Below, one piece after another: positions 1 to 3,450 of a stretch of DNA of 64,000 nucleotides; position 1 is the stretch's first letter, and every line of letters begins with the position of its first letter. The DNA lies in contig CAVRAL010000004.1 in the NCBI GenBank assembly GCA_963719085.1, forward strand, positions 1,152,001 through 1,216,000. Direction: 5' to 3'. This DNA comes from a candidate division FCPU426 bacterium (lineage in GTDB: Bacteria > Oederibacteriota > Muellerivitia > Muellerivitales > Muellerivitaceae). The notes beneath the pieces were generated by a model. The model worked only from the letters and a program-made list of their open reading frames with translations, was not told the DNA's origin and searched no databases. Position numbers and translations under genes: made by a program.

Positions 1-1
1 T

Positions 2-1858
2 TTGGAAGAGGCGAATCGGTTTTGTCCCGTTTGCGGGGCGCCCCGGGAACCCGTGGAGCGCCAAACTTACGAAGGCATCGAGGCTTTTGAGCAGGGGGAA
101 TACGACAAGGCGCTGTCCCTTTTCAAAGGTGTGGCTAAAAAGCAAAACTTAAGCGCTTTCGCGCTGCGTGATGTGGGGCACGCCGCTTTTCACCTTCAGG
201 ATGACAATCTGGCCCTGGATTATTACGAGCGGGCGCTTCAGGTTTACAAAAACCTTCTCGACGTCCATTTCAATGTGGGCCTCATCCATATGCGCCGGGG
301 CCATGTCAATGACGCCATGTTCTCCTTTTTGGAAACGCTTCAACTGATCCACGCGCTCACGCCCGGCAGTTATTACCTGGGGCTTTTTCACACGGCGGAA
401 ACCTTGACGCTTCAATGCCGGCTGAACTTGGGGATGCTTTTCAAGGAGCAGGGCGAGCTGGAGAAGGCGCTTGACCAATACCGGCTCATTTTAGAGAGCC
501 ATCCGAAGAATGTGCTGGCCTTAGGCAATCTGGGCGACGCTTTAATGACTTTGGAGCGCTACGAGGAAGCGATTAAAACCTTTAAGAAGGCCCTCAAGAT
601 CCTTCCCGAAAGCGACGAGAGGCTGAACCTCCAAAATGATTTGGGCGTGTCTTATTTCAAAAAGGGCGAGATTGAGAACGCCATCGTGGAATTTAAGGCG
701 GTATTGAAGAAAAACCCCGACCATGTGAACGCCATCTACAACTTAGGCCAGGTTTATTATCACGAAGGGCTGACGGGCCGGATGAAGAAAGACTACGAGG
801 AATTCGTGAAATCGTCCAAGGACGCGGCCTCGATTCTTTTCGCCCTCTCGAAATCCATGGTGTCGGTGGCCGCGGACGCCGAAAGGAACCGGGTGCAGGA
901 TGATCCCGCCCTTATCGGCAACAGCACGGAGATGAAAAAAATACACGACCTCATTAAGCGGGCCGCCGCCAGTGACGCGACCGTGCTCATCCTGGGGGAA
1001 AACGGAACGGGAAAAGAACTGGTGGCCAAGGCCATCCACCAACAGTCCAACCGCTATGACAAACCCTTCATTCCCATCGCCTGCTCGGCCTTGAGCGAGT
1101 CGCTTTTGGAAAGCGAGCTTTTCGGGCATGAGAAGGGCTCTTTCACCGGGGCCATCGGGCAAAAGATGGGAAAGTTTGAGGCGGCGAACCACGGGTCGGT
1201 TTTTTTGGATGAGATCGGGGAAATCTCGCTGTCCACCCAGGTCAAACTGCTTCGGGTTTTGCAAGAGAGGGAATTTGAAAGGGTGGGAGGGACGGAGCCC
1301 TTGAAGGTGGATATCCGGGTGATCGCGGCTACCAACCGCGACTTGAAGCAGGCCATCAAGGCTGAACGGTTCCGGGAAGATCTTTATTACCGCTTGAACG
1401 TTATTGTGATTGAGCCCCCGCCGCTTCGGCGCCGGGAAGGCGATTTGCCCTTGCTCATCCGTTATTTTATCGACCGGCAGAAAACCAAGCGCTCCACGCG
1501 GTTTGAGGGGGCTTCCGAGGCGGCCTTGAAGATCATGGAAAATTACGCCTGGCCCGGCAACGTGCGGGAGCTTGAAAATGTGATTGAGCGCATCCTCACC
1601 TTAAATGACGATGTGCTGATTAAGCCGGAGCATTTGCCCGAGGAAATGATGGGCAAAAAGCCCCAGGATTCGCCCGAGACAAGAATCGCGACCGGGGTTT
1701 TGCCGGGCTCCAGCGTGTTGGAGTCAGTGGAACGGGAAATGATCGCCCGCGTTCTCAAGGAATCGGACTTCAATAAGAAACAGGCGGCGGTACGATTGGG
1801 CATCAGCCGGCCCACGCTTTATCAAAAGATCCGAAAATACGGGATTGAAGTTCCATAA
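2..1858 (+). CDS. Sigma54-dependent enhancer-binding protein with N-terminal Zn-ribbon remnant (CPVCG), TPR repeats, AAA+ domain and Fis-type HTH; 5' end probably outside the window
   Basis: GENGTGKE Walker [23 protein letters not shown] Walker [38 protein letters not shown]; several TPR helices. Confidence 0.93.
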
Positions 1859-1905
1859 ACGGAATAACCATTTAGGAATGAAGCCTGGAGTATGATTCGA
1901 TCGAG

Positions 1906-1966
1906 TGTAAACTAATTGAACAGTGTAAATATATTGTGTAAATTATATTTACAAATCTGATTTACA
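1906..1966. promoter_or_regulatory. Putative upstream activating sequences for a sigma54 activator
   Basis: TGTAAA at 1906, 1924 and 1937; TTTACA at 1948 and 1961; palindrome TGTAAA-TTATA-TTTACA at 1937-1953; about 90-145 bp upstream of the predicted start site. Confidence 0.6.
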
Positions 1967-2024
1967 CGGGAAGGGATAAGTCAAATAAAGGGCCCTTTTT
2001 AAAGGCTTATCAAAAACCCCGCTT

Positions 2025-2041
2025 TTGGCATATCCCTTGCT
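2025..2041 (+). promoter_or_regulatory. Sigma54 (-24/-12) promoter
   Basis: TTGGCATATCCCTTGCT: GG at 2027-28 and GC at 2039-40, exactly 10 nt apart; matches TGGCA..TTGCW. Confidence 0.75.
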
Positions 2042-2049
2042 TATTAGTG

Positions 2050-2138
2050 GTACATCCGTGAGAGCGGAGTAGCCTTTTAACGAACCAAACCATTCTCACC
2101 TCCTTAGAGCCTCGGTCTTGACCCACCGGGGCTTTTTT
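2050..2138 (+). ncRNA. Candidate sigma54-dependent small RNA (~90 nt) with an anti-SD seed
   Basis: Lies between the -24/-12 promoter and an intrinsic terminator; 5' hairpin TCCG-TGAGAG-CGGA; single-stranded CCATTCTCACCTCCTTA. Confidence 0.6.
2107..2138 (+). terminator. Rho-independent terminator
   Basis: GAGCCTCGGT/ACCGGGGCTT stem followed by a T-run. Confidence 0.75.
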
Positions 2139-2176
2139 ATTGCCAAAATTCACCTTTTTACATAGTGGCAAATCCA

Positions 2177-2284: not shown

Positions 2285-2349
2285 ATTGTTTAGGCTTTAG
2301 CTCGTTTTTAGCCCCTGCTTGAGTTTCTTCTGTTGTGTTATCCTAGGCT

Positions 2350-3450
2350 TTGCCGCTTAAAACGCCTTGGAGGACACCCCTGAACGCCTACTGGATTATC
2401 CTTCTCATCTCCGCCGTGCTTTCCCTGGGGCTGACCCCCCTCTTTCGAAAAATCGCCCTTCGCACCAACTTCGTGGACAGCCCCAGCGGGCAGCTCAAAC
2501 GCCATACGGCCCCGGTGCCTTATTTGGGCGGGCTTGCCGTTTATTTCGCCTTTCTGTTGACCCTTTTTGGGGCCATCATTTTCTTATCCCCGGCGGACAC
2601 GCCCAAGATTTTGGCGGTGATTTTTGGGGGAACGATCATGGCCATCCTGGGGTTGGCGGATGATCTATTCTTTTTGAAGCCCGGTTTGAAGTTTTTAGTC
2701 CAGTTTGTGGCGGCGGCCTGCCTGATTATTTTCGGGGTCCATATCAAATTTATCTTTAACCCCTGGCTGGATTGGGTGATCACCCTTCTTTGGGTGGTGG
2801 GCGTCACCAACGCTTTGAACCTGATCGACATCATGGACGGGCTGGCCGGCGGCGTGACGGTCTTGGCGGCCCTGGCTTTTGTTTTCGTGCCTTTGGGCGG
2901 GGAACCCAACTACGTCAATTTGGTGGCGGCGGCCTTGGCGGGCAGCGCCTTGGGCTTTCTTCCTTATAACTACCAACCCGCTAAAATTTATCTCGGGGAT
3001 TCCGGGGCGCTCTTCATCGGGTTCGTCCTGGCCAGCGTGGCGATGGGCGAGAGCTATACCCAAACCAACGTGGTTTCTTTGGCCGCGCCGATTTTGATCC
3101 TGGGCATCCCGATTTACGACACCATTCTGGTGATGTTCCTGCGGTTCCTTAAAGGCAAGTCGATGTTCCAGGGTTCGCACGATCACCTGGCTTTGCGGCT
3201 TCGGTTTTTGGGAATGAGCGTGAAACAGGTGGTGCATTCGCTTTGGGGGTTGACCCTCCTTTGCTGCGGGGCGGCTTTCTTTTTGATCCGCCTGAGCGAA
3301 AAGCGCGCCTTTGTTTTTCTGCTGGCCTTTTTTTTCGCCGCCACCCTCTGGACCCTTTTTGTCGCCATGATCCCGATTGACGGGCCGGGAATGCGCGTGC
3401 CGGCAGCCAAGAAAAAGAAACCGCGAACCGCTCCGAAGTCCAAACGATGA
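2350..3450 (+). CDS. WecA/TagO/MraY-family (GT4) polyprenyl-phosphate HexNAc-1-phosphate transferase; start may be CTG at 2380
   Basis: PYLGGLA, GLADD, NALNLIDIMDGLA, IYLGDSG motifs; multiple TM helices. Confidence 0.9.
   Translation: MPLKTPWRTPLNAYWIILLISAVLSLGLTPLFRKIALRTNFVDSPSGQLKRHTAPVPYLGGLAVYFAFLLTLFGAIIFLSPADTPKILAVIFGGTIMAILGLADDLFFLKPGLKFLVQFVAAACLIIFGVHIKFIFNPWLDWVITLLWVVGVTNALNLIDIMDGLAGGVTVLAALAFVFVPLGGEPNYVNLVAAALAGSALGFLPYNYQPAKIYLGDSGALFIGFVLASVAMGESYTQTNVVSLAAPILILGIPIYDTILVMFLRFLKGKSMFQGSHDHLALRLRFLGMSVKQVVHSLWGLTLLCCGAAFFLIRLSEKRAFVFLLAFFFAATLWTLFVAMIPIDGPGMRVPAAKKKKPRTAPKSKR

Follow-up and report, generated by a model that had tools for sequence, protein, structure and literature searches.

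What does a sigma-54 promoter serve when the DNA behind it, just downstream of the gene for its probable activator, holds no credible open reading frame (ORF)? The question is raised by the beginning of a 64-kb window (64,000 nucleotides of contig CAVRAL010000004.1, assembly GCA_963719085.1) from an uncultured soil bacterium of candidate division FCPU426. Here the stop codon of a gene for a bacterial enhancer-binding protein (bEBP) is followed, in this order, by repeated half-sites, a -24/-12 promoter, ~87 nt without a credible ORF, and a hairpin with a U-tract. An earlier reading made from the letters of the window (the sequence-only reading) had taken these elements for a small RNA (sRNA) that a TPR-containing activator induces and that occludes ribosome-binding sites, possibly of many mRNAs. 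All the elements it listed are present, with small corrections, and its regulatory interpretation is partly supported. With moderate confidence, we interpret the locus as the gene of an independent, trans-acting sRNA of ~85-100 nt, found in single copy across the order, which would be transcribed from the sigma-54 promoter as the dedicated output of the upstream bEBP.

The bEBP gene (1..1858, plus strand) encodes, according to Pfam and its translation, a Zn ribbon, TPRs, a sigma-54 AAA+ domain and an HTH_8 domain. Pfam matches were to Sigma54_activat (E 1.4e-72), TPR families, AAA_lid_14 and HTH_8 (a Fis-type HTH); the translation shows the GSFTGA loop and the Walker motifs, and the protein lacks a receiver domain. 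The window begins within this gene. Reading the genome sequence upstream, we placed the real start (MMIALVCRECGQ...) ~40 nt further upstream; the upstream extension encodes the N-terminal zinc ribbon, CxxC-N10-CxxC. There is one rpoN gene in the genome (Sigma54_DBD match, 214.6 bits).

The predicted promoter, TGGCATATCCCTTGCT (2026..2041, plus strand), matches TGGCAY-N5-TTGCW, with its GG at 2027-2028 and its GC at 2039-2040. This pattern has a single match in the 64 kb, where 0.10 were expected, and at least one match in 10 of 100 shuffled sequences. Upstream of it, a predicted enhancer (upstream activating sequence; 1905..1967, no strand assigned), which the bEBP would bind, consists of TGTAAA half-sites at 1906-1911, 1923-1928 and 1937-1942 and TTTACA half-sites at 1948-1953 and 1961-1966. 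Positions 1937-1953 form the perfect 17-bp palindrome TGTAAATTATATTTACA. The locus therefore shows the parts expected of a sigma-54 unit: -24/-12 spacing, rpoN and a bEBP in the genome, and upstream sites ~80-150 bp from the promoter. The adjoining bEBP is the obvious candidate for the activator of the sRNA.

For the predicted sRNA (~87 nt; 2052..2138, plus strand), the 5' end was placed from promoter geometry and the 3' end by the terminator. The plus strand of 2041-2139 holds no ORF that reaches 25 aa, and the longest one inside the RNA has 7 aa. A 5' hairpin, P1 (UCCGU-GAGA-GCGGA, 2055..2068), is indicated by folds and covariation. It is followed by a single-stranded A/C-rich linker, AACGAACCA, and an anti-Shine-Dalgarno (anti-SD) seed, which together occupy 2069..2106 and were delimited by conservation and predicted lack of pairing. 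The seed stretch CCATTCTCACCTCCTTA corresponds to 2090-2106, with UCACCUCCUUA at 2096-2106 and the CCUCC core at 2099-2103; the predicted unpaired probability of the seed has a median of 0.99. An intrinsic terminator (2106..2138), recognized by hairpin scan and conservation, has the loop GACCCA and a stem (2106-2135) of 11 pairs, 6 of them G-C, and then the U-tract (T2133-T2138). The GAGA hairpin named by the sequence-only reading won in the fold started at 2045 and was displaced in the minimum-energy fold started at 2052, in which GUGAGAG (2059-2065) pairs with UUCUCAC (2094-2100); CCUCCUUA was unpaired in both folds. The single-sequence fold (-26.3 kcal/mol, z = -2.79) is only moderately unusual, and the terminator scan by itself was non-significant (3 sites vs 1.5 expected in 900 nt), so the case rests on the relatives.

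Relatives were sought in 32 genomes of the window's order and 67 from the other orders of the phylum; the window's genome is designated G000. BLAST of window positions 2020-2145 found a match in 26 of the 32 genomes of the order, mainly via the seed and the terminator. Among distinct sequences collected by BLAST via the 3' parts, 24 of 24 had a TGGCAY-N5-TTGC promoter at the expected distance. A covariance model (R1), built from 24 BLAST-recovered sequences with the promoter included, detected a single copy each in 31 of the order's 32 genomes, with a score of 88 bits in G000. A bEBP orthologue (52-88% identity) is likewise present in 31 of the 32; the genome without the sRNA, G014, is 63% complete and has no bEBP orthologue either. 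In the 67 genomes from outside the order, R1 found no credible copy. One marginal match (G039, E 0.0048) was rejected as a homologue, being on reading just a terminator-like hairpin. A protein search with the bEBP yielded three close public loci, all with the promoter, the CUCACCUCC stretch and the terminator downstream of the gene. A loose terminator-pattern scan of the sequence collection gave at least 116 matches; among the matches listed, nine had a T-rich tail, and the seven of these nine with a promoter were all already-known loci of the order.

Thirty members were aligned to the model (alignment A3). In this alignment, 87.5% of 601 cells were paired, and both sides had changed in 14 of 21 pairs. 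The observed values were not attained in any of 500 shuffles, and sliding the 3' partners reduced pairing to 25-65%. P1 carries most of the covariation (both sides changed in 12 of 13 pairs, 82% of cells paired); in the terminator, 95.8% of cells were paired, with U-G exchanged for C-G or U-A. P1 is usually longer in relatives and has the loop GCGACAAC in 16 of the 30 members, the window's genus having the short GAGA hairpin instead. Single-sequence folds of members show the same three-part architecture as the fitted alignment. Because 31 of the 32 genomes share promoter, hairpin, seed and terminator, with covariation, the module amounts to more than chance. The sequence-only reading is thus borne out as regards a bEBP-adjacent module of palindromes, -24/-12 promoter, ORF-free RNA, unpaired seed and terminator. 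In Rfam 15 (4227 models), no family reached its gathering threshold in the window, the best scoring 16.6 bits (E 0.64), and 7 further members gave no match overlapping the RNA. Conservation of promoter and seed and covarying stems, which that reading had named as points to check in relatives, were found in the alignment.

The same comparison bears on the coding potential of the opposite strand. A perfect AAGGAGGTGAGAATG at 2106-2092 would start a 27-aa minus-strand ORF, and a small protein could be encoded there; the SD site and ATG are ideal in G000, and GGAGG is followed by TTG at 4-11 nt in many relatives. Across members, however, the length of this ORF ranges from 0 to 50 aa, no start is present in 4 of 30, and the conserved loop is read in differing frames (VVAS vs LSL). 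Moreover, the ORF would cross the sigma-54 promoter, P1 shows compensatory pair changes, and there is no Pfam match. We consider a minus-strand protein extremely improbable.

The bEBP gene lies directly upstream of the sRNA, on the same strand, in 25 of the 30 loci. Two further loci have a ~270-280-aa gene between the bEBP gene and the sRNA, and there the palindromes and the promoter stay beside the RNA. Two are cut by contig ends, one of them retaining the last 16 bEBP residues, and in the remaining one a different gene lies upstream before the contig end. The inserted genes (L156:468-1274 and L160:412-1257) are unrelated. In L156, a duplicated 25-aa remnant of the bEBP C-terminus is kept beside the enhancer.

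Of the 30 family loci, 21 have a strict TGTAA-N7-TTACA palindrome in the 190 nt before the promoter, typically at ~-89 and/or ~-118 from the first promoter base; the other 9 have degenerate copies. In the whole 3.04-Mb genome G000 there are two copies of the strict palindrome. None of the 20 strict sigma-54 promoters of G000 lies near the second copy, and the sRNA may therefore be the sole target of this bEBP. Between enhancer and promoter, conservation delimits an AAAGGG(CCC)TTTTT motif (1987..2000, no strand assigned). At least 15 of 30 loci match the strict expression A[AT]A[AG]G[GC]-N0-3-TTTTT at ~35 nt before the promoter; speculatively, the motif could be a DNA-bending or IHF-type site.

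What occupies this position in other lineages? Full-length orthologues with the Zn-ribbon/TPR input domain (27-33% identity, ~600-650-aa frames) occur in other orders of the phylum. At 17 of 20 such loci examined by script, the bEBP stop is followed by repeats, either direct or inverted, and by a sigma-54 promoter and a gene of ~61 aa. At two of the other three (G073 and G076), the gene lies ~180-195 nt downstream by profile coordinates, and at the last one the contig ends early. The encoded proteins share the consensus MTFECxVKxGHxGAGK...GGVKKG...GQSVLSIK (alignment A4; loci L188-L205, e.g. L205:2133-2315 and L188:2164-2346). This gene in the same slot had been missed by the sequence-only reading. 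Since the bEBP, repeats and promoter of the sister lineages appear to drive a protein gene, the slot behind the promoter is a real, regulated output position.

Employing a profile of the small protein and the model R1, we compared the distribution of the two outputs. The protein was found in 28 of the 34 genomes of families f10-f23, in none of the 33 genomes of families f3-f9, where the bEBP orthologue is missing too, and in none of the 32 from the window's order (f1 and f2); that is, in 28 of 99 genomes overall. The corresponding numbers for the sRNA were 0, 0 credible (with the one marginal match in G039) and 31. The two outputs are mutually exclusive at the orthologous promoter. Because the sRNA order has the 61-aa protein in none of its 32 genomes, the simplest reading, drawn without a rooted tree, is that this order swapped its output, replacing the protein by an RNA.

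The small protein matched no Pfam family (best E 0.11), and no homologue was found in G000, where the best tblastn match (E 0.054) lies inside a larger gene. Its predicted fold is confident (pLDDT 85.4; strand-strand-helix-helix-strand), and structural matches to it are weak: the best Foldseek E was 0.18, the best atlas score 0.85, and the best VIA match, ribosomal protein eL20/LX, had Z 6.0, below the trust level (Z 8), with RNA-polymerase binders also among the matches. The mRNAs of the small protein bear GAGGUGAU-type SD sites. In one genus, a TPR domain and the small protein are joined in a single open frame of 343-350 aa from which AAA+ and HTH are missing (L241:163-1191 in G088 and L242:122-1171 in G089; a third is 355 aa by profile). 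This frame looks like a fusion and hints that both parts work together.

How might the sRNA act? We propose that a signal received via the TPR/Zn-ribbon part would cause the bEBP to assemble on two TGTAA-N7-TTACA palindromes ~90-120 bp upstream of the promoter and to open the sigma-54 promoter, transcription ending at the intrinsic terminator. From its 5' end, the product would comprise a protective hairpin, an unstructured A/C-rich stretch of 25-35 nt that ends in (A)CUCACCUCC, and the hairpin of the terminator. Its exposed copy of the 16S rRNA tail would pair with SD sequences, best with long ones of the GGAGGUGA type, and block binding of the 30S subunit. Own promoter, own Rho-independent terminator, conserved structure and the lack of a conserved ORF are all features of an sRNA. 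Of the 30 members, 26 have the CCUCC core and 21 have UCACCUCC, which matches the 16S 3' tail exactly; because the core is invariant in most members and the longer stretch equals the tail, SD pairing with exclusion of the 30S subunit appears the most likely mode of action.

The 16S gene of G000 itself ends with ...GGATCACCTCCTTTCT, and the identity between the sRNA and this tail is UCACCUCCUU, 10 nt. The sequence-only reading had described the seed as a copy of the 16S tail, with an 11-nt match to the E. coli 16S 3' end; the anti-SD core and the identity to the organism's own 16S hold, at 10 nt rather than 11. Its 'anti-AUG' extension, CCAUUCU, proved to be confined to the window's genus (G000 and G027), the family consensus being AAAACUCACCUCC. 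Searches for Hfq (PF17209), CsrA and ProQ found none in the genome, which is 99.08% complete, and a control search for Hfq was positive in 5 reference genomes. Since none of the three was found, blocking of SD sites would proceed without Hfq.

Likeness to the 16S tail can also be read in another way, with the RNA as a decoy that titrates a tail-recognizing factor (a nuclease, a ribosomal or initiation protein, or a toxin) and leaves mRNAs alone. The frequency of UCACCUCC and the 10-nt identity in G000 would fit a decoy, as would the sister slot, which encodes a small basic protein with sub-trust fold matches to eL20/LX (Z 6.0) and RNA-polymerase binders. On the other hand, no candidate factor was identified, those matches to known folds have weak scores (Foldseek E 0.18 or above, Z under 8), and most members do not copy the flanks of the 16S tail (GGAU... 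and ...UUUCU). Such a decoy is in our opinion quite unlikely.

If the sRNA pairs with SD sites, particular mRNAs might stand out as targets. We ranked predicted duplexes between the seed and the start regions of 2468 genes, based on crude gene calls in G000. Eight of the 38 genes of the flagellar cluster were among the top 60 (hypergeometric p 2e-6, in a post hoc test made after the cluster had been noticed), including fliI, motA, motB, fliL, flgI, flgD and a putative flagellar protein. GGUGAG is present in the start regions of 4 of the 38 flagellar genes vs 21 of 2430 elsewhere, an enrichment seen in G000 only. The cluster spans ~42 kb (C1:506393-548318; L243-L245) and holds flgBC, fliFGHIJ, motAB, fliLMNOPR, flhAF, fliA, flgFGAHIJK, fliK and flgDE. 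Flagellar targeting was not borne out by relatives, most of which have GGUGAU, the 16S type, instead of GGUGAG at the motA and flgD starts. Most of the 29 motA orthologue start regions compared have GGAGGUGAU, and the 26 flgD start regions compared (24 genomes) have, except in the window's genus, GGGGUGAU, of the 16S type. Predicted energies for motA and flgD in relatives are ordinary, at -9 to -16 kcal/mol for flgD.

Other candidates fared no better. The top sites of a naive scan, C1:204696 and C1:1272577, are antisense to real genes and are no ribosome sites, and a site in a chemotaxis-receptor-like gene is internal to the gene. The start region of the bEBP gene, checked as a possible self target, has no GGAGG. 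Near-copies of the sRNA stretch CCAUUC(U/C)CACCUCC are present in sense orientation at C1:1272566-1272586 and C1:204696-204709 of G000, within coding regions on the opposite strand; they are probably due to chance (by a rough estimate, ~0.1 expected for the longer one).

Several observations weigh against a trans-acting anti-SD sRNA. The suggestion that many mRNAs are hit found no established target in the scan and its comparative check, and no specific target emerged from any of the target scans; motA and flgD of relatives have no pairing to the sRNA past an ordinary SD site, and the start region of the downstream glycosyltransferase gene ranks 1473 of 2468 for pairing with the seed. A CCUCC seed would pair with nearly any SD site, which leaves specificity unexplained. 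The core is missing in 4 of 30 members, which have CGUCUCUC (G016), CUCUG, UCUCCCC (G001) and UCUCCUUC; in genus g2 the seed variant is GCCUCC. UUCUCAC can become paired in the minimum-energy folds of G000 and G027. As to the conservation itself, R1 included the promoter, and A3 was fitted to the model, which favours structure. Finally, conservation as high as that of the seed is seen in the linker AACGAAUCA, in the GCGACAAC loop of P1 and in the GACCCA loop of the terminator, and anti-SD action does not explain these elements.

The last point invites a different view of a real sRNA, namely that it acts through the linker, the P1 loop or GACCCA on one mRNA or an RNA-binding protein, with CCUCC as an auxiliary. 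The frequencies of these elements, called equal to or above that of the seed (the family linker motif, AAC[GA]AA[UC]CA, in 23 of 30 members, GCGACAAC in 16 and GACCCA in 29, against CCUCC in 26), speak for it, as do the four members without CCUCC and the failure to find a seed-specific target. Yet the P1 loop is replaced by GAGA or GAAA in G000, G027 and genus g3 while the seed is kept; CCUCC occupies the classic position of a seed, unpaired just 5' of the terminator; and no Hfq, ProQ or CsrA partner was found. Action through these other elements is rather unlikely.

A broader proposal would join the two outputs: on signal, both would throttle SD-led initiation globally, operons with long SD sites (such as the flagellar ones) being hit hardest, and the 61-aa protein of most bEBP-bearing lineages would, in this order, have given way to an RNA mimic of the 16S tail. 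We regard this as unlikely. If true, it would be a natural replacement of a protein regulator by an RNA, and an sRNA that competes generically with the ribosome.

The arrangement recalls known systems. In Vibrio, LuxO is a bEBP whose main output is the adjacent, sigma-54-dependent base-pairing sRNA Qrr, which acts with Hfq. Here, in contrast, no Hfq was found, the sRNA is single-copy, and there is no match to Rfam, Qrr included; LuxO is a phosphorylated response regulator, and the match of the LuxO NCBIfam model was below the cut-off. For the C-rich sRNAs RsaE/RoxS and RepG, Hfq-independent pairing of C/U-rich unpaired stretches with G-rich ribosome-binding regions has been proposed; their sequences and regulators are unrelated to those described here. 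MmgR/suhB (RF00519), Betaproteobacteria toxic sRNA (RF02278) and Burkholderia ncS54 (RF02871) resemble the present RNA in having an unpaired CU-rich anti-SD motif directly 5' of a Rho-independent terminator. They gave the three best sub-threshold Rfam alignments (16.3-16.6 bits vs gathering thresholds of 41-50), which involve just the CU motif and the terminator; promoter type and bEBP linkage differ.

The closest parallel in architecture is Pxr/nla19 of Myxococcus xanthus, where the gene of the sRNA follows that of a sigma-54 activator and is served by a separate sigma-54 promoter within the 262-nt intergenic region (PMC5568312). As described there, Pxr shares with our locus an RNA gene of ~100 nt just downstream of the activator gene on the same strand, with its own predicted sigma-54 promoter, and a multi-stem-loop RNA restricted to one order-level group with conserved synteny (PMC5568312). 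According to the same text, nla19 is a response regulator, whereas our bEBP has a Zn-ribbon/TPR input and belongs to another phylum, and Pxr is presented with three stem-loops and no 16S-tail-like seed (PMC5568312). The comparison is one of genomic architecture by description; Rfam gave no match, the presence of a Pxr model there being unconfirmed. Among the results listed by full-text searches on sigma-54 sRNAs with anti-SD seeds, made without the phylum name, none describes this RNA.

Judged from sequence comparison, the bEBP-linked sigma-54 sRNA with its anti-SD seed appears to be a real and conserved new RNA family within a known type of system (Pxr/nla19 and Qrr/LuxO). It lies outside Rfam, and sequence analysis has defined its promoter, enhancer, structure and seed. 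To our knowledge, the host phylum has no cultured members and no known riboregulators. With a bEBP that lacks a receiver domain and apparently has a single target, the locus would constitute a compact module leading from sensor to sRNA, one that might be reconstructed in E. coli. Exchange of protein and sRNA at an orthologous sigma-54 promoter, where the chemistry of the output changes and the input stays, is an unusual natural experiment and offers a way to approach the function of the small proteins. The copy of the 16S tail in the seed also raises the question of whether one RNA could globally tune the translation of strong-SD mRNAs.

Downstream of the terminator, on the same strand, is a gene for a WecA/MraY-type glycosyltransferase of family 4 (2369..3450, plus strand; Pfam Glycos_transf_4, E 1.8e-32), which is a neighbour outside the RNA unit. 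It is found downstream in the same orientation in 29 of the 30 loci. This constancy, together with an SD site (GGAGGA) that could pair with CCUCC, would suit a cis-acting leader in which the sigma-54 promoter serves the glycosyltransferase gene and the hairpin is a conditional terminator. The terminator, however, is strong and does not vary, and the folds showed no anti-terminator alternative. Past the terminator there is an extended -10-like element, TGTGTTATCCT (2334..2344, plus strand; family form TGTTATAGT), read by eye in the window and, again by eye without a strict count, in most of the 30 loci between the terminator and the glycosyltransferase gene. The distance from the terminator to the gene varies (~70-450 nt, inserted repeats included). 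Because the downstream gene has its own -10-like element, a variable spacing and, as ranked above, only ordinary pairing with the seed, a leader or attenuator is disfavoured, and we hold it to be very unlikely.

The SD site of the glycosyltransferase gene (2369-2374) is followed five bases on by CTG at 2380, which is probably the start codon, rather than the listed TTG at 2350. SD site and CTG are kept in all four loci read (the window, L001, L002 and L003), and the strict pattern GGAGG-N4-9-CTG[GA]A[CT]GC matches 14 of 30. In several relatives, short palindromic repeat units (GACAGTTGGCAG... tandems) lie 5' of the glycosyltransferase gene (L154:1617-1780, L155, L157 and L158).

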